Virus record (IMG/VR): IMGVR_UViG_3300025084_000006
Origin: a virus
Length of the DNA stretch: 64,000 nucleotides
Reading direction: 5' to 3' (one strand)
The notes under the pieces are model-generated. The model was not told the DNA's origin, ran no database searches, and saw only the letters and a list, made by a program, of their open reading frames with translations. Both the position numbers and the translations under genes were made by a program. This document shows positions 45,456 through 62,701 of the stretch, piece after piece; within the stretch, counting starts at the first letter, position 1; each line of letters opens with the position of its first letter.

Positions 45456-48400
45456 TTATACGTCCATTAGATACCAACCTGCTTTATTGGGGTTAGCGCC
45501 TCCGTTACCATCGGCATCAACCTCACCACAGAACACAAGACCAAATGCAGCATTTGGAGTTTGAACAACCAATTCACCGCCGTTATGTGTTAGTGAGAAG
45601 TTTTCGCCAAGAGTGTTTCCTGTTACGGTAGTGCCTGTATTACTTTGAGATCCTTGAACATTGACTAGAGATTGTGCTCTAACAACCAAAGACTTATCGT
45701 AAGATAGGATACCACTAATATCTATAATGCGAACCATGTCGCCCATTTGAGCATTAACAGGTAACTTGAATAGTGTTGTACCAGAGACATCAACAAAGTA
45801 ATTGACATTTGCATCAGCATTGATAATGCTAGTATTAGCAACAACCCACTTCATACCACCAGTAGGTGAGATGTAGTTAGAAATTCCAGCAATATTGAGG
45901 GATCCGTCATCGTCAACTGCAAAGACTTCATTACCATTTTGATTAACAACGAAGTCTCCACCATTGACTGTTAGGTCACCAGCAATTTGAACAGGACCAC
46001 CGAATTTAGATAGTCCATCACCTTCAGCAGATAGAGAACCATAAACTGTAAGATCGCCTGCACCTGTAAGGGTTAAACGTTCAGTTGTACCATCAACAGC
46101 ATAGATGTTAAGGTTACCCCCGTTCATCGTTACATTGCCATTAGCAGTATCGATTTCAAATGTAGTTCTTAGCGGAGTAGCAACTGTAACACCATCGTTC
46201 TGGAAAGAAGGACCGCCATTGGTGATGGTAAAGAATTGCTGGTTAACAATCGTAGATCCATTTAGTGTCAGTGTATTTTCAATAGTCGTAGTGCCATTGA
46301 TATTAGTGTTACCATTTGCACCATTGATAGTAAACTGATTGAATCCAAGTCCAATACCAACATTACCTGCAATAGTAGTGTCACCAGTAGTAGAGTTAAC
46401 TCTAAAGTTTTCTACCGCAGGTGATCCACCATCGTTAACAATCAATGCTTGAACATCGGTGCTAATAACATCAGCAATACCAACAATTTCAGCGCCATCT
46501 AGTCTCAATAAGTCAAGAGTAGTTAGAACGCCACCAAACTCAGCAACACCAATTCTTACATTAGCAGTAGAGCTATCAATACCTGATCTAGGTTCGTCAA
46601 TAATGCCATCTGGTACTGTTGGTTGACCAGGTGATCCAATATCCTTACCAGTAATGAAGGATGCAGCAGGTTGCTTATCAAGTTTAGCAATTACTGTGCC
46701 ATCAGGGTGATCGATCCAACCAGAACGACCCAGAGAAGTTTGTGTTGTAGGATCACCAGTACCTTCTTCTGCTCTTGTAACAGAGATTCTGAATCCTTGA
46801 CCATCACTAGGATTAGTTACGTTATCTAATCCAACAACACGCATGATCTCAGACTTTGCTTGATCACGCAGACCTGTAATAGAACCGCCACCAGTAACAA
46901 TAATGTTGTTAGGAGATGCAGAGTTACCACGATCAAGAAGAATTAGATCACCGATATCAAAGTCGCCAGCTCCAGGTGTACTGATTGGTAGGATGAATAC
47001 ATCACTAGAATCAGTAACTCCATTAATATCCAGAGTAATATCTGGAGCACCACCGCCACCAATTAAGGAGTCGGCAATCGTTAGTTGCTGATTATCAGCA
47101 TATCCAGTACCAGTTGAAACAACCTCTACTGATACTGTTCCATCAAATGCAACCGAAATATCGAATGCAGCACCACTACCACTACCACCAGTAGCGAATC
47201 TAAACGCATATTGTCCAGAAACACGCAAGTTAGAAGGATCAGGTGCTTGTAGGTTATCAAATCCAGAGATTCTACCACCACCAGCAATGTCCTGACTACC
47301 ACCCCAAAGTCTTACACCAGGAGTATCAATTACTCTACCAGTACTCTTATACTTGTAGAAGTCAATGTTAGGAGTATCAAGGGATCCTAGGTTGTGAAGA
47401 CTAATAGGAGTAGAGAATCTTTCTCTTACAATTTCAATGATACCTGCAGTTGTACCACCATCAAGGATAATACTGGAATCAACTGTTGCAGATGCTTGAA
47501 CTTTCAGGGAGTTTCTAATGGTAGTTGTACCACCAAGAGATGCAATTGTAATCTTATTTGCTTTAGTAAACGCTTCAACTTGTTGCGTTCTATCATCATC
47601 AAATAGTCTTGCTTTACCAGTTTGAGTGAAGATTCTTGCTTCACCAGTACCAGCAGCAACTTTACTGCCAACCTCTAATGTACCACCAGTGATAGTTTGT
47701 GCAGATCCTAGAACAACCTTGGAGTCTGCATTTCCCCATGCACCACCGATGAAGACTTGAGAATCCTTATCAGCATCATCAGCAACTGTTGCAATGTCTA
47801 CAAATGCATTTTCTGATAGAGCATGAACACTGAAGATTGATCTAGGTACGTTCGTACCAATTCTTACTGTTTGGAAGTCAGCATTAGCACCAATAGTGAT
47901 CGTTTGATCATTACTGGTATTACTGAACATATCAATCAGTTGTGCATCACCAGCAAAGTTCAGGATTGTAGCATTGTTATTAATTAGATTAAATGCTTGT
48001 GATGTAGTGTTAATATCACCACCATCGACACTGATGTCATCGGAGATCAAGAAATTACCAGTGATTCTACCATCACCAACAACAACCAAGTTACGATCTA
48101 GTTCTCTTTCAGGAGTAACACCAAGAGCAGTATTAATACCAACTCTACCACCAGCAGTGTAAGTAGTGCCAGGAGTTAAATCATCACTGGTTGCAACACG
48201 TAGAGTTGCAGGTTGATCAAGGTTATTACTATCACCACCGACTAGCAGTGCATTATCCTGAGGAATGAATCCCTTCTGGGTAAGTAGAGCACCTGTTAGA
48301 CCTTCACGCTGATCACTATTAAGATTACCAAGACCATTAATGTTGACTATGGTGTTTCCACCAGAATCTTGACCAACGTTATCGTAGCGGTTCTCTTGTA

Positions 48401-51400
48401 CAACACCATTGACATCGTATGAGACTAAAGTTTTACCAGAGATGAATGCAGTACCTACAACATCAAGGTTTGCGCGAGGAGTGGTGAACTCGTTAACATT
48501 GTTAGAGAGAACTGCATCAAAAGCAGTTCTTGCAACTGTGTTAACACCGAGTCTGTAATCTCCACGCTCATCTGTGTAAGTTCTGATTGTTTCAGCACCA
48601 AGAACACCTTGTTCTTTCCATTGCTTGGAAGAAACTTGAATGTCTCCACCAGCCCAATCTGTAGCAGTGTAGATAGTACCAGCACCAATCTCAGTTGAAA
48701 TCTGGAATTGGAATGTAACACCTGTTTCAGACCAAGTACCATCAACAACTTCCCAGTCACCATTAAGAACGTTGTTAGAGAAGTTAATGATTCTAATCTG
48801 AGAATCTTGCAGAATCTTGACATTCTCGTTAGTAAAGGTTGCAGCAAACTCAACTGTTAGATTCTTTGTTCCATCTGCAGTAATTCTAAAGATTTTAGCA
48901 GCAAAACTAGTGAATTTATTAGCAAGAATCCAACCAAGTGAACCAGACTCTCCAACATAGCTACCTTTGTATAGAAGATCGCCAGCGGCAGGATCTTTCA
49001 GTAGGTTGGCACCATACTCAACAACCTGAGTTCCATAGAATGCAGTATCTTCATCCTGCCAAGGTGTAAGGTTAGATGGTTCAGAACCAAGATAGTTAGT
49101 TCTCCAAGTGTAGGACTGACCATACTGAGCAGATGGTTTTGGACGAGCATTTAGAACAAATACAGCGGATCTAATCTTGTTACCAGAGAGTAAGATATCA
49201 CCATCTGATTGAGTTCTCCAAGAACCAGCAAACAATGTTTGATCTTCATCAGCAGAAATATTAGAGAGTACTCTAAGTGCATCGCCTTCAGATGCTTCAA
49301 CATTGATCTCAACAGGTCCGTTCAATGAGGACTTGCCAGCAACTACAATTGTAGAATTAAACGTTACTGGAGAATCGAATGTCGTAACAAGCGTTCCGAT
49401 GTTCTCATCATCATCCTCAGAATCAATCAATGAAGCAGATTCAAGGAATGTCTCTTCGCCAGTGATAGCGTTGACTTTCTTGTTACCAATATAGAGGTCG
49501 CCGTTAGAGTTTAGACCTGTGTAGAAGACGATACCACCATCTTCACGTTTTGCCTGAGCGTAGAAGTCTTGCTTATCAGTAAGAACAACTTCTTGGCGAA
49601 GTGGGAAACCAGTTGAATAGTTACCAGGACCGAATCCAAGATACTCAAATGTGTGGTTACCAGATCTAGCAATAGATGGTCTACGAAGTTCGACGTAAAG
49701 TTTACGTTCTGTTGGGAACTGCGAGTCTCCAGAGATTGGAATCAATCTATCTTCAGAACCAGAAGTTGCATTACCTTCTTGTCCTTGAATTCTGTTATCA
49801 ATAATGTTTCCATTACTATCTGTTGTTACATTGGTGTAAGTAAATCGATTTAGGAAAGAGTTAGAGATTGCATCGGTAATCATCTCTTTCGTTTCACTAC
49901 CCTTAGCATCGTTAACTGTTACCAAACCATGTACATAGTTGTCAGCAGCAGAAATTGTAGCAGGAACATCAACAATAGAAGTATCTCTAACACCTGTACC
50001 ACCATCAACTTGGAACCACAATGGGTCGTTCTTGTAGTTGATAGGATACAACTGAGAAATAGGTTGAGAGAACTTAAAGTTTCTGAAGTTCTCACCAACA
50101 CCAGATCCTTGTGGGAACGGAGAGATATTACCACGCAAGCAGGTTAGGTAGTAGATACCATCCTGTTGGTTTGCAATACGCTCTTGCAACGTATTAATAT
50201 CAAAGATGTAGAAGGAATCATCAAAGTTTCCTTGGTCTTCAATTGTTGCGACAAAGTATGCATTCTGACCAGTATCATCAGTAACAATATCACCAGGAGC
50301 AATAGTATAAACGTTTGCTCCTTCTACTCTATAGAGGTAGTTGTCACGTTTTGCTTTGTCTAGTCTTGCAATATCACCGAACGAGTTAGGAGTCTCGACG
50401 AGTTGAATTTGAACTGCACCTTGCTTGAACAGAACTACATTACCTGCAATGAAATCTAGTTCGCCAACAACACCTTTCAAGACTAAAACTGCTTGAGAAG
50501 TTTCAATATCATTAATGTATGATTGTAGATATGCTTCACCTTGTACTGTGCCGCCACCTACTGTCTCCCACGTAATCTTATTAGCATCATTACTTTGAGT
50601 TGCATTAGCAGTGAAGAATCCACCTTGCAGGAAGTTACAACGAACAACTGTGAAGATCTCGTTCTTAACAGACTGATTAACGATCGTGTGATCAAAGAGT
50701 GTTACCTCTAGGAACTCATCACTGGATCCTAGAATGGGTTGAACTTTACGTGCAGATTGAATCGTAGCAGAAATCTTAGAATCAAATTCAATTACCTTCG
50801 GTTCTAGATATGGATCGTAAAGATTTTGCTGTTCTGGTAGTAGATCAACAACAGATGGATCAATTGTTCTTACTTGATCAGCAATCAATTCTGACTTGTT
50901 TAGACCAATTTGCTCACCAGCATTGGTGGGGTTAAAGAACGATGCAACATTATTTGGGTTACCAGGAATAGGCTTCAGCAATACTCTTTGTGGAACTAAG
51001 CGACGTTTGTCATCAGTTCTACATTTGATAACGAAACCATTAAGGGGATCACGTACTGTCTCCAAGTAGGAAGGAACAACATAACGCATTCTATAAACAC
51101 GATCTTCCTTACCTCTTTCATCTTCAACACGAAGATAACGAGTATCAAGTGTAGGATCAGTCTTAGTTTGGAAATCATTGACCAGTTCTACACCACCATG
51201 GAATCTCGAAAGAATACTATAGCGATTATATGTGCCACTATTACCAGAATTTGACTCATCTTCAACATTAAGATACCACAAACCACTATTGTTTCCTGTT
51301 GTTGTAAACTCAGGGTCAAAGACTAGAGGTGATGGACGCTTATTAGCATAGAGATAGAAATTATTACCTGTTCCAGAAACAAACGTCAGTGCTCTGTCAC

Positions 51401-54400
51401 CAGACTCAGCATCAGCTGCTGTTTCATGAAGAGTAACACGTTTGTTGGAAACGTAACGTACAAAGTATAAGGTGTTAGTGTTAATTGAAGCAGCAGAACC
51501 ACTCAGTTGAGGTAGAGTAGATCCCGCAATGTCAGTAGCAATTCTGACAAATACTTGCTGTGAAGTTGTATTAGAAGCAGGAACGTCAAAGATATGAGCA
51601 ACGTTTGTCTCAATCTCAGATGCACCAACAACATTGGACTTGTACTTATGAAGATCATAGTTGCCATCTAGTACATACTGCTCAATGTAGATCTCAACAT
51701 CAGGATCAACTGAGTCAGTCTCAGGAGAGTACATGTAGATACCTGCTGCTGCATTCTCAGGAGATGTAGCAAGCATCATCTTGTTAGTCTCAGTTCCATC
51801 GAATACACCAGGATATTCTGCTGTGGATACTGCAGTGATTTCAATCTCGATGTCAGGAGCACCAGTTCCACCTAGTTGACCATCACTAATAACAACAACG
51901 TCTCCATTTTGATATCTAGAACCACCATTAGCGATTCCATCAAGATTTACGCCATCGCCAAGTTGTAGAGAACCATCAGCATTAACCTGAATGTTAAAGC
52001 GTAGTCCAGTACCAGATGCTAATGCAGTACCATCTCCAGCAACTTTAGGTTGTGCAACTAATGAACGATAGAGACCTGTTGCTGTTGCTCTTGTAGTATT
52101 AGGAGCAGTGAATGATGTACCAGCGGCTTCAGTAACAGAAACTGCGGTAGCAGATAGAGAGAAATTCTCTGGATAAAGATTTCTACCAGGAGCAATAACA
52201 TAATACTTTGTATTCGTCTTAAATCCATCAGGTAGTCTAACAACACGCTTATCAGGATTTTGACCTGCTTTTGCACGAGGAATCAATCTAACAGCAGTAC
52301 CAGTTTCAAGGTCATGTGGGTTAGGATTGCCTGCAAAGGTGCCTGTAGCAAGCGTGAATAGCGTTGCGCGAGCAGATAGACCAGATAGGTTAGTATTAGG
52401 TTCAACACGTGTTACAGAAGCAAATGTAGGCATTGTAATGCTACCTACCAATGTACCTTGAATAGCAGAGGTAATTAGTGCAGTCAAAGTAGTAATGTTG
52501 TTTGCAATACCAGCACATGGAGGTGTTACAAGGTTGCCATTTGCATCATAGTCAGGAATAATGGTGTTATCAATTACTTGAGTAAGACCATGTGTACCTT
52601 GAACTGTGATTGTTTCTTGACGCATCGCATTGATGGCAAGATCTCTCGCCAGATTAAATGCTGCAATAGATTCAGTTTGCTCACCAATAACTGATGCGCT
52701 AGTGATATAGAGTTCAGCAGCTGCATATACTTTGTTATTACCACCAAATCTAATGTTGTATGCAATCTCGTTAAGTACAGTTTCAACGTCATCAATACAA
52801 GCATCTTCGATTGTTTCGCCAGTAGATGCTAGTAGACCTTGACCTAATTTTGTTCCAGCATATGCGGGATCATTAGCAATTCTGAAAACTGCTTCTGAAG
52901 CAATGAAACGTGCATTATCAGTGATTGCATTAGAAGCATCAACTTCAGTACCACCCAGTACACTATAACCAGAGTTAAGTACCAAGAAGATCTGCTCAAA
53001 GTAACCATCAATTGTGGTTGCAATGTTAGAGCACTCAGGCAGTGGATCACCAGAAATTGGATCAACTCTGCTATCTTGAGTGATTGTTGGATCAGTCGTA
53101 GGAGTGATCGCAGACCATGAACCTTGAGGAAGAGTGAAGTATAGGAAAGAACTTGTAGTTCCAGGACTTGTAGATTGTACAGGTCTTGTAGATCCAAAAC
53201 TCAATCTAGCACCAGGAACACCCAATTCAATTTGAGTATCACTAATAATTTGCTTAATGAAACTATTACCATCTAGGTTAGTTGTAATTTCAGTTGGTGA
53301 AGCATTAAGTTTACCATTAGTAAAGGAAGAAGGTGTGTACTCATTAACCTTCATTCCAATGATAAGACCAGATGTGTCTCCAACATTGACAATTGCCGAG
53401 TTAGGAGTTAGAGAACAATCTCTAATTAGGTAATCAAAATTACGCATTGCTGCGATCATCATGCTCTTAACATAATCAAGAGCATCCAAAGTTTCGTTCA
53501 ACTCATTAAAGATGTAAGAGAGTTGACCTTGAATGTAGTAACCTTCTGCTGCTTGAATAGAGTTGATGTTACCACCAAGTCTCAAGTCATTGACAACAGC
53601 ATCAACAAAATATCCGATGTCTCTTTCGCACTTACCAATAACAATGTTTGGATTAGAAAGAAGTTCTGGGTACTTAGTAACAATGTACTGATAAGATTCG
53701 TTCTGAATCAGTTCTTTGTTATCTTCAATTCTGTTAGCAGCATCTTGTGCATAATTGTCAACTGCTGCGCTTGCAGGAGTTAGAGTTTCGATGCCAACTG
53801 TCCAAGACTTAAATCCACTTGGAGAAATTTTTGATGTAAACTCAAGTGGACCAGCAGGTTCTGAAGGATAACGAGAAAGATCAACTGCTAGTGTCTCACC
53901 TGTTTTAGCACCAATTCTATATCCATTAATGGAAGATGCTGGACGGGATTCTGGATCATTAACGTCATCACCAGCAAGGTATAGTTTAGTATGGTTGTTT
54001 CTAGACTTAGATGCACTAACATCTAAAGTATACCACTGGTTGATGATTGTCGTACTCTCATTAATTGTACCAGGTGGAATAATATCAGTAATGTATCCAC
54101 CCTTATCTTGGTTGAAGGAGAATCCTTTGAAACCAACAGAGTGAAGTGATGTATTACCGAAGTTAGAGTTCGAGTTCGTGATGGACATATCTCCACCACT
54201 TTCCATTAGGAAGTGATCGAAGAAACCAACAGCAAAGACCGAGACGCACTGAACGAAAGAGTCATCCGAAGCACGGATGTGGAAGTTTCTCCAGTCATCT
54301 TTCCAGTATGCATCACCCTTAGTATGGTAAGGAATGGTAGCAAATGCGTCAGTAAGTGATGCTTGGTTCCAAGTATTGGTAAGTCTGTCGTAACGAATGA

Positions 54401-57400
54401 ACGCACGATCATCTTTTTGAAGGCTAACTCCAGTATATTGAGCTACGACCATTGACTTAAATCCAGTCGCCTTAGATCCATCCGCCCACATGCCGCATTG
54501 ACCCCAAGTAGAGCGGATCGAGCAGTTAAACACATAAGGAGATGCGGACTCAACAGAGTCAATTTCCGCAAGAACTACCGCGTTTGTAGAGACTCCACCG
54601 ACTTCACCAGAGAAATAAGTTTGACCAGATACAAGTCCAAGTGATGCTGCGGTATTATTGTATACTTCATACTCAAATACCTTAGGATTAACCTGATCAA
54701 TCTTGGTAACCTTCCAGGTTCCGTTGATTTCATCAGATAGTCCAGAGTTAATGATAGCAACGTACTGACCTTCAAAGTAACCATGATCAATCTTGGTGAC
54801 AATGGTAATGTTTGAATAACCGAATTGCGAAACGAATGAAACTGAACCAGCACCACTAATTGCTTGAGTCAGGGTAACTGTGTTACCAGAGATAGATTCA
54901 ATTCTAGTGTTAGGATTGATAACTACGCTTACATCACTAGATGTAACTGTTGCACCAACGTTGAGTTTGCTGGTATCAGATACATTAACTAGTTGATCCG
55001 TGCTGTTAGCAGTTCCGATGAATGTAGTGGAATCCTCAACTTTAATACTCTCGATAGTTCTGCTATCAGATAGAGGACCAACGATTCTGTTTTCTTGAAC
55101 CAGTGCTTCTAGTCCACCATCATCGATAGTTGGTTGGAATTGCTGGAATGACTTACCTACTTTTTCGTAGTAGTTATCAAGATCTTTAGAATCTGCATAC
55201 TCCATGATGCAAATTTTATGGTGAGAATACTCAGGAATTGCTAGTTGAGTAGAACCACGCTTGTTATAAACTTTACCGACACCTGCAGTTGCATCATACA
55301 GAGGAGATTGTGCAGAAAGATCACCATCTTTGATAGTGAACTGCCAGATATAACAACCACCAGTTAGGTTGAAGATACAAGTTCTGTCTTGTGTAGTATC
55401 AGCAGGATCAGGAACATACAGAGGACGAACAACTGTACGACGTAGGTCATAACCGATTAGAGAACAACCTCTAGGAACGATACAACCACCTTTTTCTGCG
55501 TTAAACTTATAGAGAACGTTGTCAGGATTGCTTAGATCAACAATTGAATTATCCTGCCACTCTTCCAGTGCTCTATTGTAATTGAAGGAAGGAAGAACAC
55601 CAGTAACTTTAACAGATGCCAGATCGTCAAGATTTCCGACTGAAATAACGTCAGTTAGAATCGTGATCAATGTATCAATAGTTGCCTGAACATCTTGACA
55701 TGTTGCTAGATTGCCAGATCCAGTAAAAGGAATTACAGGAGTATTAGCACCAGCAATAGCAGGTCCAGGAGAGATTGTCAGATCTTTAGCAAACAATCTG
55801 TTGGTAACTGCTCTCTTTGCCCAATAACCAATAGCACCAAATGCAGTGACAGATTCTGCTTCTTCGCCTAGAAGACCATTAGAAATTGGATTACCGAAGC
55901 GGTCAAAATATGCTTTAGTGTTAGTAATGGTGTTAGCATTACCATCAGTTCCTAGGTCATCAATCAAACCATCAACAATAATACCAGCATCACGCTTGCA
56001 CTTAGCATGACCAGTAGAGACTTGGGTAGAAATTGTTTCTGCGGGAAGTTGTGAAAGATTCTCGTCAGTAACAGCAGTGATAACAATAGCACCCAATGTG
56101 TCAATAGCAGACTGAACGTCAGCACATGCAGCAGGGTTACCAGATTGTAGGTTTTCCTGTGGGTTGTTGGTGTTACCAAAGATAGCATCACCAGGAGTGA
56201 TACCATTAGGACCAGAATCTTTGAAGTAAAGCTGATTAGTAATCGCTTTCTTCATCTCACCGATTGCAAAGTTAAATGCAGTCAGTGACTCAGCAGTTTC
56301 ACCTTGGAGACCATTAGAAACCCAGTTAGTTCCAGACTCATCAAAGTAATTTTGTGCAAGTTTTCTCGTATATACGTTTCCACCTGCTTCATGAACATCA
56401 AGGGCAATAGCGTCAACAAATTGACCAATGTCACGCTTACACTTGATCTCGCCATCAGGGAGAATTGTGGAACTCGTTTCTGCAGGTAGAAGAGAACTGA
56501 GTAGGAAAGTACCATTGTTTGCTGCTAGATTTGCATCATCGAAGATTGTATCAACGATAGCATATAGCGTATCCACCATGTTCTGAATATCAGTACAGGC
56601 ATTAACAGAAGTGTTAGCAACTACTCCGTTACCATCACCATAAACTGCTTCACCAGGAGTTACTGTCAGATCCTTATACTCATTACCAGGAGATGATGTA
56701 GAAGTGAAGTTATTAGTCATTGCTGACTTCATCAACTCAATTGCTTTAGCAAATGCAGTCAATGCAGAAACTTCTTCTCCACGAAGACCACTGGTTGCAT
56801 CATGAACAAGACCATTTGTTAATGCACTAACGAATGCATGTGTAGATTGTGGTTCGTGCTTAATTGCTTGAGCAGTTGCACTAACAAATGTATGAGCTGA
56901 TGTATCAGAAGAAGTACCAACGTTAATTGTAAACGTACCATCTTGACGTTCAAAAGCACCAGTTCCACCAACAAAAGTGTGAGCACCAGTATACTCGGAA
57001 GGTCCTACATCAATTGTAATTGTATTTGTATCAACAACCGTGATATCCAACCAACGACCTGATGGATAATCAATACCAGGACGAGGATAAGATTTAGTCT
57101 CTTGGTTGCCATCTAGGACACATGTATACTCCAAAGAGTTGTCTTCAATCTTGATGTAATCTCCAGTAGAGAATCCATGATTTGCAACTGTTAGGGTAAC
57201 AATGTTAGTTGTTGCATCGTATGGAGCATCAGTTGCTGTATGTGATGTAGAACCAACACTAGCAATAGCAATAGACTTACCAGCGAAAGGATCACTACCA
57301 GGACGTGGATATGTCTTAGGTTGTGTAGGATCAGTTAGGCAAGTGAATGTAAAGGAGTTGTCTTCTAGAACAACACCACGACCAACACCTAGACCATGCT

Positions 57401-58526
57401 GTCCAACGGTGACTTCCATGACACCAGTTGCAGGATCATATGTAGCAGCAGATGGTTGGAAATACTTATTAGGACCAGAAACACCACCATTGAATGTGAT
57501 AGTATTATTAGTAGTCTGAGTTACAGAGAATCCTTTAATTGCGCCAGGATCAATACCAGAACGAGGATAAGATTTAACTGCTTGATCACCATCCATGTCG
57601 CAAGTGAACGACAAAGCACCTGCTTCTAGGAATACTCTATCATTAACAGCAATGTTATGATCATTAGCAAAGGTAATTGTAGTGCTACCATTTGCGGGAT
57701 TGTATGCTGCGTCAGTTGGAGTATAAGAAACTCTGCTTCCTACCCAATCAGTACCAGCATCATTAAAGTAATTAGTAATATACTTTCTAGTATACTTGTT
57801 ACCACCACCTTGCTTAACATCAAGTGAGATAGCATCAATCAAGAACTTGATGTCGCGAACACAACTACCAGAGTTATAACCAGGAGGTACAGGATCAGGA
57901 CGAATAATAGCATCCATATGATCGAATGCATCTTGTGCAATCAGATCTTTATTTCTTTGGATGAGATTATATCCATCATTAAATCTAGACCACTCACCAG
58001 TAGCAGCATCATTAGGGTATACAAAATCAGGGTGTTGAACAGAAATTTCAGCAGCAGATCTATCAATGATCTCTTCTCTGTTCTTCTGAATCAGACGATA
58101 TGCGTCCTTATAACGAGACCATGCACCTGTTTGTGGATCACCAGGATAGAAAAAATCTGGATGTTGTACTGATACTTCTGCTACTCCACGATCAATAACT
58201 TCCTGACGATTTGCCTTCAGGAGGTTAGATGCATCAAAATATCTTGCTTCTACTGCAGTTTCTGTTACAAGACCTGGGCGGTTATCAATATAGTGATTAC
58301 CTGGCATCAACATGATGCTGAACTGGTCAAACCTGTCGTTATTTGCTCCAGGTAGATATGAATATCTAGATACTTCGATAAATGCCCTTTGAATCGTCTT
58401 AAATGGACGTAAAGGTGAATTTCCTCGGTTGTTCAGTTCATCAGTAGCATTAAAGTCATCTGGAGATACATAGAGGTATTTTCCAGTCTTACTTGAATAC
58501 AAGTTATCAAGTCTTGTTAGCGGCAT
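45456..58526 (-). CDS. giant tail fibre/virion structural protein (4356 aa)
   Basis: YLYVSPDD...RPFKTIQRA and SPYVFNCS beta-helix-type motifs; YDxxTG...HG...FTC...YPR repeats; helical CxRD repeats; gp9/10-like C-terminus LPVNAQMGDMVRIID; late promoter upstream. Confidence 0.85.
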   Translation of the reverse strand: MPLTRLDNLYSSKTGKYLYVSPDDFNATDELNNRGNSPLRPFKTIQRAFIEVSRYSYLPGANNDRFDQFSIMLMPGNHYIDNRPGLVTETAVEARYFDASNLLKANRQEVIDRGVAEVSVQHPDFFYPGDPQTGAWSRYKDAYRLIQKNREEIIDRSAAEISVQHPDFVYPNDAATGEWSRFNDGYNLIQRNKDLIAQDAFDHMDAIIRPDPVPPGYNSGSCVRDIKFLIDAISLDVKQGGGNKYTRKYITNYFNDAGTDWVGSRVSYTPTDAAYNPANGSTTITFANDHNIAVNDRVFLEAGALSFTCDMDGDQAVKSYPRSGIDPGAIKGFSVTQTTNNTITFNGGVSGPNKYFQPSAATYDPATGVMEVTVGQHGLGVGRGVVLEDNSFTFTCLTDPTQPKTYPRPGSDPFAGKSIAIASVGSTSHTATDAPYDATTNIVTLTVANHGFSTGDYIKIEDNSLEYTCVLDGNQETKSYPRPGIDYPSGRWLDITVVDTNTITIDVGPSEYTGAHTFVGGTGAFERQDGTFTINVGTSSDTSAHTFVSATAQAIKHEPQSTHAFVSALTNGLVHDATSGLRGEEVSALTAFAKAIELMKSAMTNNFTSTSSPGNEYKDLTVTPGEAVYGDGNGVVANTSVNACTDIQNMVDTLYAIVDTIFDDANLAANNGTFLLSSLLPAETSSTILPDGEIKCKRDIGQFVDAIALDVHEAGGNVYTRKLAQNYFDESGTNWVSNGLQGETAESLTAFNFAIGEMKKAITNQLYFKDSGPNGITPGDAIFGNTNNPQENLQSGNPAACADVQSAIDTLGAIVITAVTDENLSQLPAETISTQVSTGHAKCKRDAGIIVDGLIDDLGTDGNANTITNTKAYFDRFGNPISNGLLGEEAESVTAFGAIGYWAKRAVTNRLFAKDLTISPGPAIAGANTPVIPFTGSGNLATCQDVQATIDTLITILTDVISVGNLDDLASVKVTGVLPSFNYNRALEEWQDNSIVDLSNPDNVLYKFNAEKGGCIVPRGCSLIGYDLRRTVVRPLYVPDPADTTQDRTCIFNLTGGCYIWQFTIKDGDLSAQSPLYDATAGVGKVYNKRGSTQLAIPEYSHHKICIMEYADSKDLDNYYEKVGKSFQQFQPTIDDGGLEALVQENRIVGPLSDSRTIESIKVEDSTTFIGTANSTDQLVNVSDTSKLNVGATVTSSDVSVVINPNTRIESISGNTVTLTQAISGAGSVSFVSQFGYSNITIVTKIDHGYFEGQYVAIINSGLSDEINGTWKVTKIDQVNPKVFEYEVYNNTAASLGLVSGQTYFSGEVGGVSTNAVVLAEIDSVESASPYVFNCSIRSTWGQCGMWADGSKATGFKSMVVAQYTGVSLQKDDRAFIRYDRLTNTWNQASLTDAFATIPYHTKGDAYWKDDWRNFHIRASDDSFVQCVSVFAVGFFDHFLMESGGDMSITNSNSNFGNTSLHSVGFKGFSFNQDKGGYITDIIPPGTINESTTIINQWYTLDVSASKSRNNHTKLYLAGDDVNDPESRPASSINGYRIGAKTGETLAVDLSRYPSEPAGPLEFTSKISPSGFKSWTVGIETLTPASAAVDNYAQDAANRIEDNKELIQNESYQYIVTKYPELLSNPNIVIGKCERDIGYFVDAVVNDLRLGGNINSIQAAEGYYIQGQLSYIFNELNETLDALDYVKSMMIAAMRNFDYLIRDCSLTPNSAIVNVGDTSGLIIGMKVNEYTPSSFTNGKLNASPTEITTNLDGNSFIKQIISDTQIELGVPGARLSFGSTRPVQSTSPGTTSSFLYFTLPQGSWSAITPTTDPTITQDSRVDPISGDPLPECSNIATTIDGYFEQIFLVLNSGYSVLGGTEVDASNAITDNARFIASEAVFRIANDPAYAGTKLGQGLLASTGETIEDACIDDVETVLNEIAYNIRFGGNNKVYAAAELYITSASVIGEQTESIAAFNLARDLAINAMRQETITVQGTHGLTQVIDNTIIPDYDANGNLVTPPCAGIANNITTLTALITSAIQGTLVGSITMPTFASVTRVEPNTNLSGLSARATLFTLATGTFAGNPNPHDLETGTAVRLIPRAKAGQNPDKRVVRLPDGFKTNTKYYVIAPGRNLYPENFSLSATAVSVTEAAGTSFTAPNTTRATATGLYRSLVAQPKVAGDGTALASGTGLRFNIQVNADGSLQLGDGVNLDGIANGGSRYQNGDVVVISDGQLGGTGAPDIEIEITAVSTAEYPGVFDGTETNKMMLATSPENAAAGIYMYSPETDSVDPDVEIYIEQYVLDGNYDLHKYKSNVVGASEIETNVAHIFDVPASNTTSQQVFVRIATDIAGSTLPQLSGSAASINTNTLYFVRYVSNKRVTLHETAADAESGDRALTFVSGTGNNFYLYANKRPSPLVFDPEFTTTGNNSGLWYLNVEDESNSGNSGTYNRYSILSRFHGGVELVNDFQTKTDPTLDTRYLRVEDERGKEDRVYRMRYVVPSYLETVRDPLNGFVIKCRTDDKRRLVPQRVLLKPIPGNPNNVASFFNPTNAGEQIGLNKSELIADQVRTIDPSVVDLLPEQQNLYDPYLEPKVIEFDSKISATIQSARKVQPILGSSDEFLEVTLFDHTIVNQSVKNEIFTVVRCNFLQGGFFTANATQSNDANKITWETVGGGTVQGEAYLQSYINDIETSQAVLVLKGVVGELDFIAGNVVLFKQGAVQIQLVETPNSFGDIARLDKAKRDNYLYRVEGANVYTIAPGDIVTDDTGQNAYFVATIEDQGNFDDSFYIFDINTLQERIANQQDGIYYLTCLRGNISPFPQGSGVGENFRNFKFSQPISQLYPINYKNDPLWFQVDGGTGVRDTSIVDVPATISAADNYVHGLVTVNDAKGSETKEMITDAISNSFLNRFTYTNVTTDSNGNIIDNRIQGQEGNATSGSEDRLIPISGDSQFPTERKLYVELRRPSIARSGNHTFEYLGFGPGNYSTGFPLRQEVVLTDKQDFYAQAKREDGGIVFYTGLNSNGDLYIGNKKVNAITGEETFLESASLIDSEDDDENIGTLVTTFDSPVTFNSTIVVAGKSSLNGPVEINVEASEGDALRVLSNISADEDQTLFAGSWRTQSDGDILLSGNKIRSAVFVLNARPKPSAQYGQSYTWRTNYLGSEPSNLTPWQDEDTAFYGTQVVEYGANLLKDPAAGDLLYKGSYVGESGSLGWILANKFTSFAAKIFRITADGTKNLTVEFAATFTNENVKILQDSQIRIINFSNNVLNGDWEVVDGTWSETGVTFQFQISTEIGAGTIYTATDWAGGDIQVSSKQWKEQGVLGAETIRTYTDERGDYRLGVNTVARTAFDAVLSNNVNEFTTPRANLDVVGTAFISGKTLVSYDVNGVVQENRYDNVGQDSGGNTIVNINGLGNLNSDQREGLTGALLTQKGFIPQDNALLVGGDSNNLDQPATLRVATSDDLTPGTTYTAGGRVGINTALGVTPERELDRNLVVVGDGRITGNFLISDDISVDGGDINTTSQAFNLINNNATILNFAGDAQLIDMFSNTSNDQTITIGANADFQTVRIGTNVPRSIFSVHALSENAFVDIATVADDADKDSQVFIGGAWGNADSKVVLGSAQTITGGTLEVGSKVAAGTGEARIFTQTGKARLFDDDRTQQVEAFTKANKITIASLGGTTTIRNSLKVQASATVDSSIILDGGTTAGIIEIVRERFSTPISLHNLGSLDTPNIDFYKYKSTGRVIDTPGVRLWGGSQDIAGGGRISGFDNLQAPDPSNLRVSGQYAFRFATGGSGSGAAFDISVAFDGTVSVEVVSTGTGYADNQQLTIADSLIGGGGAPDITLDINGVTDSSDVFILPISTPGAGDFDIGDLILLDRGNSASPNNIIVTGGGSITGLRDQAKSEIMRVVGLDNVTNPSDGQGFRISVTRAEEGTGDPTTQTSLGRSGWIDHPDGTVIAKLDKQPAASFITGKDIGSPGQPTVPDGIIDEPRSGIDSSTANVRIGVAEFGGVLTTLDLLRLDGAEIVGIADVISTDVQALIVNDGGSPAVENFRVNSTTGDTTIAGNVGIGLGFNQFTINGANGNTNINGTTTIENTLTLNGSTIVNQQFFTITNGGPSFQNDGVTVATPLRTTFEIDTANGNVTMNGGNLNIYAVDGTTERLTLTGAGDLTVYGSLSAEGDGLSKFGGPVQIAGDLTVNGGDFVVNQNGNEVFAVDDDGSLNIAGISNYISPTGGMKWVVANTSIINADANVNYFVDVSGTTLFKLPVNAQMGDMVRIIDISGILSYDKSLVVRAQSLVNVQGSQSNTGTTVTGNTLGENFSLTHNGGELVVQTPNAAFGLVFCGEVDADGNGGANPNKAGWYLMDV

Positions 58527-58559
58527 AACTACCCGAGCTTATTGTCGTTTTCCTTGATT

Positions 58560-58567
58560 TATTTATA
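58560..58567 (-). promoter_or_regulatory. T4-type late promoter TATAAATA
   Basis: Perfect match 34 nt upstream of the giant fibre gene. Confidence 0.85.
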
Positions 58568-58600
58568 CACATCACGTCTACCTATTCAGTAAACTAAGAA

Positions 58601-58672
58601 CTCCCAAGGCTGGATTTGAACCAGCGACCAGCCGATTAACAGTCGGCGGCTCTGCCACTGAGCTACTTGGGA
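58601..58672 (-). tRNA. trnN: tRNA-Asn (GTT), CCA not encoded
   Basis: TCCCAAG TAGCTCAGTGGCAGAGC...CTGTTAA...GGTTCAAATCC...CTTGGGAG cloverleaf. Confidence 0.96.
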
Positions 58673-58674
58673 TT

Positions 58675-58814
58675 GTTAGGAGGATTTTAGGAGAAAGATG
58701 CACCATGCAGGTGGACCACTCGCTCTTTATCAATCCTCCTTACTACCCTCTGCTATTAGAGAGGTTGTAGTATAGGGGCGCTTTCATATAAGAAAGATCT
58801 TTTGTACTCCCCAT
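58675..58814 (-). ncRNA. putative structured RNA (three consecutive stems) upstream of the tRNA
   Basis: Stems at 58775-58812, 58741-58772 and 58678-58740; no convincing ORF. Confidence 0.45.
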
Positions 58815-58816
58815 AA

Positions 58817-59371
58817 TTACTCACGAAGTTCATCAAACGAATAATTGCAAGAAAAAGTTTTTCTTGTTTTTTTGCTATGATGAACATTTACTCCATGAAG
58901 AATTGTACTAGGAAAGAAAATAATATCTCCAGGAGATACTTGTGGTGTCCATGTAGTACGGAACCCAAAGATTTCTTTCCATTTAGGTTTTAATGAATTG
59001 TTATATCGATCATAAAAGAAAAATTGTCCAAAGTCATCTTCCTGTTGAGGGAAGAATACCGATGCAAAATCTACTTCTATATGATCATGTATTTCTTGAT
59101 AAGAACCACGTTCATAACAATTGATCCAAGGATCATGGAAAGTATATGAGAAAGATTTTCCCACAGACTCGCCAAACTTTTGCATGGATGGTTTAATTAA
59201 CTGATCAGTTTCTTCCCAAGGACAAGCAATAGTTTGTACTTGGCACCCTTTAGTCCAATCAAAAGCAGTATAGTTTTCACTTTTGTTCAATACGTATGAA
59301 GTTAATTCATCTGCATTGGGTGCTTGAAATTGAACAAAGAACTGATTAAATGAAAAAAGATCAGTTATCAT
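58817..59371 (-). CDS. 2OG-Fe(II) oxygenase (TIGR02466-like)
   Basis: WINCY..GSYQEIHDH, GDIIFFPSTILHGV, RKTFSCN. Confidence 0.85.
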   Translation of the reverse strand: MITDLFSFNQFFVQFQAPNADELTSYVLNKSENYTAFDWTKGCQVQTIACPWEETDQLIKPSMQKFGESVGKSFSYTFHDPWINCYERGSYQEIHDHIEVDFASVFFPQQEDDFGQFFFYDRYNNSLKPKWKEIFGFRTTWTPQVSPGDIIFFPSTILHGVNVHHSKKTRKTFSCNYSFDELRE

Positions 59372-59894
59372 ATTTTTTAAATAAGAAGCATCCGTGCTGA
59401 GATCCCCAGACTTGTTTTTTTGACTCAGGGTCAAACCCCTTGTCCTCTACATTATACCACCCTTCGCCCAAAAATGCAACGTTTTCTAAGTAGGTTTCGT
59501 TATCGCCTTGCATGACGACACAAGAACATCCTGGTTCGATGCGACCTGCATAGTGTCCATTCTTGAACTCAAATATTGTATCACATCCTACCTTGTGTGT
59601 CAAGACCATATTTAAAAGACTCTCTAGGTTTTTAAACCCAAGATGACGACTTTTATCTTCGATTTCGTAATTTTGTACTACGATATTACCTGTGCTATCG
59701 TCTGCTACTATATTCAGCAAAAATTGACGATATGGTTTATGTGTCTTATTAAAATATGCTTGCTCACCATAAAACCACCCATCTTTAACCTTACGATGAG
59801 TAACTACAATATAAGCATACCGAGAGGGGTATGTAAATGCTTGTATTTTATTATTGAACGTTCCTTCAAACCATTTACAAAAATTTTCAATCAT
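59361..59894 (-). CDS. cpeT: CpeT/CpcT-type phycobilin lyase
   Basis: FEGTFNNKIQA..YP, FYGEQAY...PYRQ, GCD, DKGFDP...VWGS..G.F.F. Confidence 0.92.
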   Translation of the reverse strand: MIENFCKWFEGTFNNKIQAFTYPSRYAYIVVTHRKVKDGWFYGEQAYFNKTHKPYRQFLLNIVADDSTGNIVVQNYEIEDKSRHLGFKNLESLLNMVLTHKVGCDTIFEFKNGHYAGRIEPGCSCVVMQGDNETYLENVAFLGEGWYNVEDKGFDPESKKQVWGSQHGCFLFKKYDN

Positions 59895-60156
59895 CTTGTG
59901 GTAACAAAGTTTTATCGTTTACTTGAAGATCAAATACCAATGGGTGTAGTTCTTCTTCCATCAAATATGATGATAATTTGTATAGATCTTCCATATCCCA
60001 ATCCTTTCCTTCCAGTGCTTGTGTCTGAACAGTTGGGTGATCTTGTATAATTAATGGCAATTCATCAAAAGTGTATGGAATTCCCTGAATGAAGTACATA
60101 CGTACAACACTTCCTTCTAAAAATTGATATAGTTGGGAAAGTTGATATGCTTTCAT
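59887..60156 (-). CDS. conserved cyanophage hypothetical protein
   Basis: VVRMYFIQGIPYTFDEL...YLMEEELHP. Confidence 0.75.
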   Translation of the reverse strand: MKAYQLSQLYQFLEGSVVRMYFIQGIPYTFDELPLIIQDHPTVQTQALEGKDWDMEDLYKLSSYLMEEELHPLVFDLQVNDKTLLPQDD

Positions 60157-60181
60157 CTTTCTTTAATCACTTACGAATTAT

Positions 60182-60820
60182 TTATTCATATTGTAAGTAA
60201 TCATATTCTGACACAGATATGTTTGTTATAGAATCATGCATTCCAAATATACCATTTGGTAAAATATTAAATGCAAGAGAATATCTATTTTTATTAGTTC
60301 TGTTAAGAGAAACTTGATGTCCCAAATGACTTGGAAATAATAGTAATGATCTTTTACTAGGTTCAAAAATTACTTCATTTGAATGCTCAGGTGTTATTCT
60401 ATCTACATCCTGATCTAATACAATTTGATTTAATATTGGTTTATGAAATAGTATAGGATTTGTATAATCAGCAAAATATAGACAACCAGACCAAAACGAA
60501 TTGCAATGAGAATGTCTATTCGACATACCACCAGGTGGAGTCATAGTTGACCACGAACCCATTATTTTAAAATCACATGTTCGTTTTACTGTAAGTGTGT
60601 TATACGCAAAATCAGTAAATAAGGACTCAATTGATGTTTTTAGTTCTGGGAAATATTTCCCCAAAACATTACGTTCTTCTGATCGATATGATTTTGCTTC
60701 TGTAGTTTTTTTATAGTAGTCAAGTGCCGCACTTATATCTGCTAATCTAATACAATCGTTTTCTGATAAAAAATTGTCTTGTTTCGCAATAGGTATCGGA
60801 AAAATTCCTAAAGTATCCAT
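60182..60820 (-). CDS. 2OG-Fe(II) oxygenase (TIGR02466-like)
   Basis: IFPIPI, HSHCNSFWSGCLY, LLLFPSHLGHQV, RYSLAFN. Confidence 0.88.
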   Translation of the reverse strand: MDTLGIFPIPIAKQDNFLSENDCIRLADISAALDYYKKTTEAKSYRSEERNVLGKYFPELKTSIESLFTDFAYNTLTVKRTCDFKIMGSWSTMTPPGGMSNRHSHCNSFWSGCLYFADYTNPILFHKPILNQIVLDQDVDRITPEHSNEVIFEPSKRSLLLFPSHLGHQVSLNRTNKNRYSLAFNILPNGIFGMHDSITNISVSEYDYLQYE

Positions 60821-60827
60821 AATTATA

Positions 60828-61064
60828 TCACACCAGTAAACCTTTATCACTCATGTAATGAAGTGTATCGTGCATGTTACCAAGATGCTTAGCACCAATA
60901 GCAACCTGAGGATATGTTGCCCCAGATCCGAACTCTGCTTCAAATGCTCTTTGAGTAAAGTGTTCGTTAAGTTTGTATTCTAGGAATTCACCACCTAATG
61001 ATTTAAGTAGTGAGGTCATACGCTCACACTCTTGACTGCCGTTAGAATAAATTACTGCTTGCAT
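60828..61064 (-). CDS. glutaredoxin-like protein (single Cys)
   Basis: AVIYSNGSQEC...ATYPQVAIGAKHLG. Confidence 0.8.
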   Translation of the reverse strand: MQAVIYSNGSQECERMTSLLKSLGGEFLEYKLNEHFTQRAFEAEFGSGATYPQVAIGAKHLGNMHDTLHYMSDKGLLV

Positions 61065-61255
61065 GGGGGTTCTTTATATGTGATAGTGATTTGTTTATAT
61101 ACTTCATCTCGATTGTCGCTGTTATAAACATTACATCGATCGATTTTAGCATTTAATATATTCACTACATTATCTAGTTGATGTTCAACTATAAACTTTT
61201 TAAATCCATCATCCATCCAACTCTTGTTAGATCCTGGTGCGTTAAAATCATCCAT
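61052..61255 (-). CDS. hypothetical protein
   Basis: 67-aa ORF, coupled. Confidence 0.65.
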   Translation of the reverse strand: MDDFNAPGSNKSWMDDGFKKFIVEHQLDNVVNILNAKIDRCNVYNSDNRDEVYKQITITYKEPPCKQ

Positions 61256-61530
61256 TACTCAATACCTTTGGGAAATTCTTCAATCTCAGTTAATTCATAG
61301 TCCCAGTCTTCCATAACTGTATTGGCATAGAAACGATCAGAAAGCATTTCGATTTCTTTCTCGGCATACTCTCTGGTTTCTGCTTCCAACCAAATATCAA
61401 TCACCTTACCAAGTCTAAGTTTCTTGATATCCAACTCAGACAATCGTCTACTACCATCTCTCACAGCATTACCAGGAGAGTCATCAACTTGTGATCGTAG
61501 TCGGATGAATACTAGTGCTTTAAACTTCAT
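61255..61530 (-). CDS. purS: phosphoribosylformylglycinamidine synthase subunit PurS
   Basis: V.IRLR..V.D..G.AV, LRLGKVIDI, ANTVMEDW. Confidence 0.9.
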   Translation of the reverse strand: MKFKALVFIRLRSQVDDSPGNAVRDGSRRLSELDIKKLRLGKVIDIWLEAETREYAEKEIEMLSDRFYANTVMEDWDYELTEIEEFPKGIE

Positions 61531-61748
61531 TCAAATAATTCCTTCAAATCTTTCGCAAATGTGTCGTTTTTCAATTCCACGGGATCAGGACGTTCTCTAG
61601 CATCAAGTACTTCATTGAAGATCTGCTTCAACTCTTCACGTTCTTCTGGTGTGAAGATTGTGCGAATTTTTACTGGCATAGGTTCATAACTACTTGGTCT
61701 CTTTGATTTACCAGGAAGACTCATGCCTTGTGTGTCAATTTTGTCCAT
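61527..61748 (-). CDS. hypothetical protein
   Basis: Start MDKIDTQGMSLPG; the longer ORF-track version overlaps the glycosylase. Confidence 0.65.
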   Translation of the reverse strand: MDKIDTQGMSLPGKSKRPSSYEPMPVKIRTIFTPEEREELKQIFNEVLDARERPDPVELKNDTFAKDLKELFE

Positions 61749-61752
61749 TATA

Positions 61753-62265
61753 CTATACCCAATCAGGTTTGTTGTGTGGTAGTCGTAGGTAGTTATCAGA
61801 TACCCATGGTTTAGATGCAATGTACATCTTATATGCTTCAATGGTAGAGATACTATCATCGAACTTATACTCCTCAGGCATTGCACGAACAAAAGGAGTG
61901 TGATCATCCCATGATACATCAGGAATGATTTCGTCAGCAGCAAGGAGAGTTTTAAAGCAAGTATGGCATTTGCCATATCGAGTGAAATACTCTTCGCATA
62001 GAGCAATACCATGCTCAAGCAACCATCTAGCATTTGCTACAGATTCGTTTGCCCACTTAGTGCATGGATGATTACGGAATGCTCCCTTCTCTGTAGCATA
62101 AGGTGTGCCGTCTTTCTTAGGCAATGTGCCATAACCATGCCCCCACTTGTCAGAACATACAATAGCAAGCATCTGACAGGTTTCTAAGGGCATCTTGACG
62201 ATGTGCTTGTCTGGTAAGACAGCAGCAGATCTCCAAGGTGATTCATTCGTGACAAAAATATTCAT
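61753..62265 (-). CDS. pyrimidine-dimer DNA glycosylase/endonuclease V-like protein
   Basis: MNIFVT...LPDKHIVKMPLETCQML, NHPCTKWA, LCEEYFTRYGKCH. Confidence 0.8.
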   Translation of the reverse strand: MNIFVTNESPWRSAAVLPDKHIVKMPLETCQMLAIVCSDKWGHGYGTLPKKDGTPYATEKGAFRNHPCTKWANESVANARWLLEHGIALCEEYFTRYGKCHTCFKTLLAADEIIPDVSWDDHTPFVRAMPEEYKFDDSISTIEAYKMYIASKPWVSDNYLRLPHNKPDWV

Positions 62266-62399
62266 TTTTTTGACTTAACCCAACAAGGTTTACATAACGA
62301 ATTTTTATATCTTTTCTCGGATGGGACATAGCATCCAACCTGAGGGCATTGATTCGCTGGTATCATCTTACCACAACCAACGCACTTTGTCTCCCACAT
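62262..62399 (-). CDS. small Cys-rich (zinc-finger-like) protein, 45 aa
   Basis: Manual translation MWETKCVGCGKMIPANQCPQVGC...LCKPCW. Confidence 0.65.
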   Translation of the reverse strand: MWETKCVGCGKMIPANQCPQVGCYVPSEKRYKNSLCKPCWVKSKK

Positions 62400-62401
62400 C
62401 T

Positions 62402-62701
62402 TCATAATGTTCTCTCTAATCTATTTGTTGCTTGATCTGGGAAGTCTCTTGGTCTACTATCAGTAGCATTATCAGTTCTAGGTGAACCTTCGTTCGCCTT
62501 CATTGTATGCTGATAGTTTGGTCTTGGGTATCTAATACAGAATGGATCAGGCATCCAGTATGTTACCTGCCATTCTTGATCAGGACATAACTCAAGATGC
62601 TTCTCTACACTATGAGAAAAGATACCTAGTTGAATATGACCATCATGACTGACACATCTACCATTGCCAATGTCAACCAGGAAAAGCATCTTACTACTCA
62701 T
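62402..62701 (-). CDS. hypothetical protein
   Basis: Start MSSKML; coupled to purM. Confidence 0.7.
   Translation of the reverse strand: MSSKMLFLVDIGNGRCVSHDGHIQLGIFSHSVEKHLELCPDQEWQVTYWMPDPFCIRYPRPNYQHTMKANEGSPRTDNATDSRPRDFPDQATNRLERTL

Follow-up and report, generated by a model that had tools for sequence, protein, structure and literature searches.

Introduction

In phycobiliproteins (PBPs), Cys84 forms a thioether to the bilin, Arg86 contacts its propionate, and Asp87 contacts the pyrrole nitrogens. The loop between helices B and E helps to close the Cys84 pocket, and an N-terminal X-Y hairpin is used for alpha-beta pairing. The bilin biosynthesis-associated globins (BBAGs) of heterotrophic bacteria are PBP paralogs linked to a PcyA-like reductase; they are reported to be self-assembling biliproteins, and their description mentions no phage structural proteins (Rockwell et al. 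2023, PMC10151467). Here we analyze a 64,000-nucleotide (nt) stretch of viral DNA (IMG/VR record IMGVR_UViG_3300025084_000006; the whole stretch is called the window below), in which one gene encodes a giant fiber protein of 4356 amino acids (aa) with five repeated modules, R1 to R5. These modules are very probably divergent homologs of PBPs with a common globin-like core (helices A, B, E, F, G, and H), in which R2 and R3 lack helices A and B.

Results

A first, sequence-only reading of this DNA had picked out five helical repeats with a C-x-(R/D)-D core in the giant protein and proposed that they might be globin-fold, PBP-derived domains displayed on the virion. All five cores were found at the codons it named (Table 1). 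The motif C-x-[RD]-D occurs exactly five times in the protein, once in each core and nowhere besides; 0.21 occurrences are expected from composition, and none of 2000 shuffles reached five or more, so that a chance motif was rejected. A phmmer self-comparison showed that the five stretches are true internal repeats, of which R1 to R4 have the core C-x-R-D and R5 has C-x-D-D. The later Cys noted in each repeat is also real (Cys2 below, the core Cys being Cys1), and the DAxNxIxxN helix pair ascribed to three repeats indeed precedes R1 (as three tandem copies), R4, and R5, but not R2 or R3. Moreover, the alpha and beta PBP motifs quoted in that reading agree with the consensus sequences of cpcA and cpcB from cyanobacterial genomes.

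Table 1. Positions of the giant fiber gene, its modules and insertions, and cpeT in the window
Feature	Coordinates	Strand	Residues and cysteines	Basis or remark
Giant fiber gene	45456..58526	-	4356 aa; 13,071-nt open reading frame (ORF)	ORF call
Two extra helix A/B hairpins alone	57999..58232	-	aa 99-131 and 141-176	A1 profile positions 2-37 match
R1, first part (helices A, B, E, F)	57723..57977	-	aa 184-268; Cys222-Val-Arg-Asp, Cys codon 57861-57863	
Beta-rich insertion in R1	56799..57722	-	aa 269-576 (~310 aa)	Translation; phmmer puts the R1 halves on both sides
R1, second part (helices G, H)	56523..56798	-	aa 577-668; second Cys644, codon 56595-56597	
R2 (helices E-H only)	56028..56486	-	aa 681-833; Lys-Cys696-Lys-Arg-Asp, Cys codon 56439-56441; second Cys801, codon 56124-56126	
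R3 (helices E-H only)	55602..56027	-	aa 834-975; Lys-Cys843-Lys-Arg-Asp, Cys codon 55998-56000; second Cys943, codon 55698-55700	
R4, helices A-G	53442..53759	-	aa 1590-1695; core KCERDIGYF, Cys1633, Cys codon 53628-53630	Pfam, phmmer, AlphaFold2, Foldseek, VIA
Immunoglobulin (Ig)-like beta insertion, G-H loop of R4	53127..53435	-	aa ~1698-1800 (~100 aa)	AlphaFold2 strands, model residues 118-218
R4, helix H	52968..53033	-	aa 1832-1853; second Cys1832 at start, codon 53031-53033	AlphaFold2 helix, model residues 253-272
R5 (complete helices A-H)	52410..52946	-	aa 1861-2039; degenerate core Cys1910-Ile-Asp-Asp, Cys codon 52797-52799; second Cys2004, codon 52515-52517	
cpeT, T-type phycobilin lyase homolog	59361..59894	-		PF06206, E value 2.9e-37; 835 nt upstream of the fiber gene, same strand

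When the whole protein was searched against Pfam, the sole family found was PF00502 (Phycobilisome protein), at 28.3 bits (E value, 2.1e-6) against a gathering threshold of 22.2 bits. Among pieces of the protein, aa 90 to 265, a match to which the two extra A/B hairpins contribute together with R1, scored 22.9 bits, above the cutoff, and the single modules all stayed below it, with 18.0 bits for R4 (profile positions 33 to 84) and 13.5 bits for R5. R2 and R3 individually gave no match to Pfam, and their membership thus rests on the internal repeats and the family profile. In a phmmer search of aa 1581 to 2039 against PDB sequences, phycoerythrin beta and C-phycocyanin alpha came first, in register with Cys84; R4 is the module copy closest to phycocyanin alpha, and its matches include the C-phycocyanin alpha chains 1phn_A and 3brp_A.

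We gathered 76 related viral loci, which yielded 646 module copies, and built an alignment, A1, from 89 diverse copies. Searched with the A1 profile, 177,635 PDB sequences gave PBPs as all of the best 60 matches, headed by CpcA 8iml_A (E value, 1.7e-5). A1 positions 5 to 60 pair with PBP residues 38 to 104, which places K-C-x-R-D-[IV]-G-Y over K-C-A-R-D-I-G-Y, and 22 of the 89 copies match PF00502 unaided (best E value, 1.3e-6). The profile-profile check against PBPs suggested by the sequence-only reading was run with hhalign, using cpcA and cpcB alignments built from cyanobacterial genomes, and gave a probability of 96.1% against CpcA (alpha; E value, 3.6e-9; 57 columns) and 72.7% against CpcB (beta; E value, 3.2e-5; 57 columns). 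The 57 columns span helices A, B, and E and so extend beyond the motif. In both hmmsearch and hhalign, the first Cys of the modules stands at the start of helix E within the motif K-C-x-R-D-I-G-Y and is aligned, together with the Arg and Asp, to Cys84, Arg86, and Asp87.

AlphaFold2 models were obtained for R5 (139-row alignment; predicted local distance difference test, 90.4; predicted template modeling score, 0.88) and for R4 with its insertion (106-row alignment; 88.8 and 0.88, respectively). In Foldseek searches against the PDB, the best ~48 matches of the R5 model were all PBPs, with a probability of 1.00 and a template modeling (TM) score of about 0.6, and essentially all best matches of the R4 model were PBPs, also with a probability of 1.00, the first being 4f0t_A at 26% identity. 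VIA-align comparisons with 48,161 representative chains placed phycoerythrin beta 5aqd_M first for both models: Z score 14.8, root mean square deviation 2.4 Å, and 143 residues for R5, and Z score 15.7, 3.2 Å, and 156 residues for R4, where the alignment reaches model residue 271. The best eight VIA matches per model were all PBPs (Z scores of 10.9 to 14.8 for R5 and 11.9 to 15.7 for R4), phycoerythrin beta being followed by allophycocyanin, the PBP domain of ApcE, and phycoerythrin alpha. Thus, both models match PBPs best, and the non-globin helical bundle that would have spoken against the sequence-only reading was not seen.

The structural match of R5 begins near PBP residue 35, which makes the module a globin-like core without the X-Y hairpin. 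This hairpin is absent throughout, as the sequence matches set in only at profile position ~32 and PBP residue ~35 to 38 and nothing equivalent precedes the modules. R2 and R3 begin only at helix E. Altogether, PF00502, the PDB profile search, hhalign, and the two AlphaFold models support the proposal of globin-fold, PBP-derived domains in a virion fiber. It is highly improbable that the likeness arose by convergence or chance, with an unrelated helical repeat sharing a short motif with PBPs. The weak single-module scores (R4, 18 bits; R5, 13.5 bits; R2 and R3, none) would suit such an origin, as would Foldseek E values of only about 5e-3 and the proneness of helical folds to high Z scores; however, three independent sequence methods and two structural methods rank PBPs first in the same register, PBPs score above every other globin-like fold, and the profile alignment takes in helices A, B, and E and not the motif alone.

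Other globin-like folds appeared in VIA at Z scores of ≤11.2, namely photocobilins, globin-coupled sensors, RsbR, and pXO2-61. The globin-like pocket might instead accept a ligand other than a bilin: some tetrapyrrole such as heme, a metal coordinated by Cys and Asp, or a molecule of the host surface, in which last case the modules would serve receptor binding or sensing unrelated to bilins. That heme globin-coupled sensors, RsbR, and photocobilins come next after PBPs in structural similarity (Z scores of about 10 to 11) and that relatives of the protein are annotated as tail fibers would agree with such a ligand. Nonetheless, we consider it improbable: no proximal His pattern was seen, the sequence homology is specific to PBPs and includes the bilin triad of Cys, Arg, and Asp, and the genes associated with the modules (cpeT, heme oxygenase, and bilin reductase, described below) are bilin specific.

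The giant gene itself has relatives annotated as tail, short tail fiber, or virion structural protein. Among PHROG profiles, phrog_4527, "short tail fiber," matches the 4356-aa protein with 6023 bits, and the closest isolate relative is a "putative tail protein" of Synechococcus phage Sf-CH11 (82% nucleotide identity), followed by relatives in S-RIM32, S-H9-2, Syn1, and S-RIM44, all T4-like cyanomyoviruses. A gene with a tail-collar domain comes after the giant gene. All five modules lie within the N-terminal 2040 residues, and no other ORF of the window carries the module. The beta-rich insertion in R1 consists of three ~85-aa repeats with one Cys each (residues 309, 396, and 469) in the conserved context F-T-C ... 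K-[ST]-Y-P-R-x-G-x-D-P; it belongs to no Pfam family and matches only phrog_1276 and phrog_701 among PHROG profiles. The insertion in R4 (model residues 118 to 220) resembles the Ig-like domains of phage tail tubes, decoration proteins, and baseplates (VIA Z scores of about 6 to 7).

The related loci fall into two groups. Group A (L001 to L050 and L076) is marine cyanomyovirus-like, with 55 to 96% identity to R4, and has one to seven modules per protein within the sequence stretches collected. Group B (L051 to L075) has 31 to 46% identity to R4 and consists of giant ORFs, most of the longer ones with 15 to 22 tandem modules of ~107 to 150 aa and truncated ones with fewer. Several group B phages also have a single-module ORF of ~307 to 310 aa directly downstream of the multimodule gene (L062:11172-12092; L064:11154-12083; 309-aa ORFs in L051 to L054 and L061). 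Conservation was counted over non-redundant copies, 194 from group A and 311 from group B. The Asn of helix A/B is kept in ~100% of group A and 94% of group B copies, Cys1 in 90% and 97%, the Arg in 75% and 97%, and the Asp in 99% and 97%, respectively. Other well-kept positions are the Gly-Tyr after the core, a G-G-N turn, and one Tyr, and the mean identity among module copies is about 25%. Family-wide, the triad reads CxRD in 534 copies and CxDD in 42; orthologs of R5 keep C-x-D-D, and two that lack Cys1 also lack Cys2. A Cys-Gln thioester of the bacterial-adhesin type, raised by a Gln at profile column 86 in group B, was rejected given the Glu in group A and the different fold.

In a profile search of 1.84 billion representative proteins, the family had 1610 members at an E value of ≤1e-3 and a maximum of 36 copies per protein; the metagenomic proteins P0006 (6382 aa) and P0007 (5984 aa) have 36 module copies each. 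Among 50,697 isolate phage records, 111 carried the module, and the isolates among the matches listed are cyanophages only, including S-PM2, S-RSM4, S-WAM2, and, in gp7, P-HM1 and P-HM2. In relatives, a further giant structural protein, in some cases the baseplate wedge protein gp7, bears the module as well; the window has no such second gene. In record coordinates, the second-gene sites lie at ~55.5 to 57.9 kb in S-PM2 and ~95 to 97.3 kb in Sf-CH11, and the sites of P-HM2 lie at 46.3 to 59.7 kb (gp7) and ~81 to 83.8 kb.

The gene cpeT (Table 1) stands in the same order in related phages. T-type lyases serve beta-Cys153/155, and cpeT is reported in only 31 of 153 sequenced cyanophages (review, PMC10452541). 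In loci centered on the fiber gene, cpeT was upstream in 29 of the 30 group A loci with enough flank, at a distance of 240 to 2330 nt and with 32% to 94% identity to the cpeT of the window. Conversely, we gathered cpeT-centered loci with a CpeT profile and counted those with at least 5 kb downstream; a same-strand ORF with the module followed in all 57, starting 16 to 2182 nt after cpeT, and the gap between the two genes is as small as 16 to 43 nt. Among the phages compared, Cys2 was seen only where cpeT was present: group A and P-HM2 have both, and the two complete genomes of group B (below) have neither.

Upstream of the fiber gene, the same strand of the window carries, in this order, tRNA-Asn, a 2-oxoglutarate-Fe(II) [2OG-Fe(II)] oxygenase, cpeT, a second 2OG-Fe(II) oxygenase, purS, a denV-like gene, and purM; Sf-CH11 and S-PM2 were the basis for inferring gene content across the whole genome of this phage. 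An auxiliary-gene island spans 58601 to 63629 on the minus strand, in which the denV-like gene encodes a pyrimidine-dimer glycosylase and the two oxygenases flank cpeT. Pelagibacter phage Mosig has a similar island beside its neck genes, with four 2OG-Fe(II) oxygenases, denV, ferrochelatase, heme oxygenase, and PcyX.

Group B includes two complete records, G002 (274 kb; 23 profile matches) and G003 (207 kb; 16 profile matches), in which psbA, hli, nblA, and cpeT were not found. Each has an adjacent pair of genes for a heme oxygenase and a PcyA/PcyX-like ferredoxin-dependent bilin reductase. The reductase is also present in the 70%-complete G023 and hence in all three near-complete group B genomes; no bilin reductase was found in the smaller group B fragments. 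The group B reductase is closest to that of Pelagibacter phage Mosig (34% identity). G002 and G003 are related, with reductases 62% identical, and were counted as one lineage. Such a reductase is rare among isolates, occurring in 27 of 50,697 records, 26 of them cyanophages, and its presence in group B is therefore unlikely to be accidental. The role of the heme oxygenase-reductase cassette in phages of non-cyanobacterial hosts has been called "still enigmatic," with speculation only on phytochromes or BBAGs (PMC11480375, 2024 Nature Communications). With psbA, hli, nblA, and cpeT not found, the reading of group B as ordinary cyanophages was rejected; the capsid protein of G002 has its closest relatives in an uncultured huge phage, Flavobacterium phage immuto, and Microcystis phage Mel-JY01. 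A strict coupling of cassette and module was likewise rejected, since in Mosig and P-SSM2 the cassette occurs without the module. The heme oxygenase and reductase genes overlap (L078, G002:C1:91000-101000; L079, G003:C1:74000-84000), and their neighbors in G002 include S-adenosylmethionine (SAM) decarboxylase-like, SAM-lyase-like, and NAD-dependent sugar epimerase genes. On a coherent reading, module phages of bilin-rich hosts bring the lyase only, and module phages without photosynthesis genes bring the bilin pathway.

Cys2 stands directly before helix H in both models, at residue 144 of R5 (helix 145 to 162) and residue 252 of R4 (helix 253 to 272). At the chain level, VIA aligns the helix H of the modules to the C-terminal helix of phycoerythrin beta, and by this homology Cys2 would occupy the position of beta-Cys153/155. 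The equivalence to beta-Cys153 was not obtained by sequence, as the hhalign alignments with CpcA and CpcB reach no further than helices A, B, and E. In PBPs, a long distance separates the start of helix E from that of helix H, and these two places hold the well-separated beta-84 and beta-155 bilins. Of the group A modules with helix H, 108 have both Cys, 4 have neither, and 6 have one only; in group B, 55 have Cys1 alone and 1 has both. Cys1 thus needs no partner at the Cys2 position. The sequence-only reading had cautioned that the first Cys might simply form a disulfide with the later one; this caveat is weakened by group B, which keeps Cys1 in 97% of copies without a second Cys, and still fits the joint presence and loss in group A, which agrees with either a disulfide or a joint loss of pigment sites.

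These data bear on the possibility that the modules are apo and purely structural, a host PBP domain having been captured and reused as a rigid helical bead, with Cys, Arg, and Asp stabilizing the fold and, in marine cyanophages, a Cys1-Cys2 disulfide forming when the particle enters oxidizing seawater. We regard this, the main alternative to pigment binding, as a serious possibility that falls short of probable. A scaffold-like role would suit modules that occur in tail, baseplate (gp7), and fiber proteins in up to 36 tandem copies, that have a shortened B-E loop and have lost the X-Y hairpin, that in R2 and R3 lack helices A and B, and whose two Cys are jointly present or absent in group A. 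However, group B keeps Cys1, Arg, and Asp at 97% each without the second Cys, and the starts of helices E and H lie far apart in PBPs. A purely structural role also leaves unexplained why the three pigment-contact residues are the best-kept polar positions at about 25% identity and why the modules are linked to cpeT and to heme oxygenase plus reductase.

Discussion

Whether the modules are pigmented is, in our judgment, an evenly balanced matter: a bilin may well be bound covalently on at least some of them, and the circumstantial support comes from the conservation of the triad, the synteny with cpeT, the heme oxygenase and reductase of group B, and a match with adsorption phenotypes described below. 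In the mechanism we propose, the fiber would fold in a host cytoplasm rich in phycoerythrobilin and phycocyanobilin, where Cys1 would receive a bilin through autocatalysis, for which ApcE is the model, or through S/U-type lyases of the host. Cys2, capping helix H at the putative beta-Cys153/155 site, would be loaded by the phage CpeT encoded just upstream. Virions assembled with such fibers would display pigmented beads on them, and the likeliest use of the pigment would be light sensing that gates adsorption. The alternative role offered by the sequence-only reading, mimicry of a host protein, finds no support in our analysis.

Several observations weigh against bilin-bearing modules. To our knowledge, pigmented cyanophage virions have not been reported. 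In the modules themselves, the B-E loop is shortened by 9 to 11 residues relative to PBPs, helices F to H have diverged beyond sequence alignment with PBPs in hhalign, the Arg is replaced by Asp in R5, and some R5 orthologs lack the Cys. Moreover, gains and losses of Cys1 and Cys2 coincide in group A, as would also be seen with a disulfide. The genetic associations are also open to other explanations: the cpeT synteny may be a gene order inherited within one clade, cpeT of P-HM2 is about 26 kb from the nearest module gene (gp7, record 46318-59682), the three group B genomes form one broad lineage, and Pelagibacter phage Mosig and P-SSM2 have heme oxygenase and reductase without the module. Finally, the match with adsorption phenotypes is a lead and not a test, as it involves three phages only.

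That match is as follows. P-HM1 and P-HM2 do not adsorb in the dark, and P-SSM2 does (Liu et al. 2019, PMC6628666). The adsorption of S-PM2 is light dependent independently of host photosynthesis, by a mechanism that the literature leaves open (PMC6628666). The module profile has 6 matches in P-HM2 and 13 in S-PM2, both of which have cpeT, and none in P-SSM2, which has no cpeT. That a pigment makes adsorption light dependent is speculative, and we think it unlikely. Equally doubtful is the fuller picture of a virion that carries its own bilin photoreceptor, in which PBP modules on fibers and baseplate would be loaded by phage CpeT in cyanophages, or with bilin made by the heme oxygenase and reductase of the phage itself where the host is bilin free, and would let light alter the fiber and so restrict adsorption to the light; if true, it would account for the light-dependent adsorption of S-PM2 and P-HM2, the retention of cpeT, and the making of bilins by phages whose hosts are apparently non-photosynthetic.

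Should the modules bind bilin, the outcome would be pigmented phage particles, so far undescribed, and the purpose of phage CpeT, light-only adsorption (PMC6628666), and heme oxygenase plus reductase in phages without photosynthesis genes (PMC11480375) would become testable. Even if they are apo, the fiber is a clear case of a host antenna protein made into a virion building block. With or without a pigment, the assignment of PBP modules corrects the blank annotation of giant genes, and a large PBP-fold family in phage structural proteins (about 1600 representative proteins) keeps the pigment-attachment residues.

Compared with known systems, the modules are closest to the alpha and beta subunits of PF00502, with which they share helices A, B, E, F, G, and H, the K-C-x-R-D-I-G-Y motif in register with Cys84, Arg86, and Asp87, and a conserved Asn in helix A/B. 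R4 resembles phycoerythrin beta in having an insertion at the G-H corner, and the second Cys of the modules, which both models place directly before helix H, may correspond to Cys153/155 of beta subunits. In contrast to these subunits, the modules lack the X-Y hairpin, and with it alpha-beta pairing, and have a shorter B-E loop; they are repeats inside a 4356-aa virion protein, two of them with inserted beta domains, whereas PBPs are free subunits of ~170 aa. Given the tail and fiber context, assembly of the modules into the (alpha-beta)3 discs of a phycobilisome is very unlikely. ApcE, like the fiber, has its PBP domain in a large multidomain protein with a loop insertion (4xxi_A; VIA Z scores of 12.3 and 13.0), and it attaches bilin without a lyase, a precedent for self-loading of Cys1. 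It differs in having one PBP domain and in belonging to the intracellular phycobilisome core, whereas the phage modules are multiple and on the virion.

BBAGs, set beside the modules by their description, share with group B phages the association of a reductase with a PBP-like globin and differ in being small stand-alone bacterial proteins. The phage CpeT and the hemO plus pcyX/pcyA cassettes, which co-occur with the modules, have so far been interpreted as serving host metabolism, in support of the host antenna. We propose the module as a candidate phage-encoded substrate for these bilin genes; as Mosig and P-SSM2 have the cassette without the module, module loading cannot be its only role. 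Full-text literature searches turned up no account of phage structural proteins with PBP-like domains, and what is new here is the PBP superfamily in a virion-borne, repeated form.

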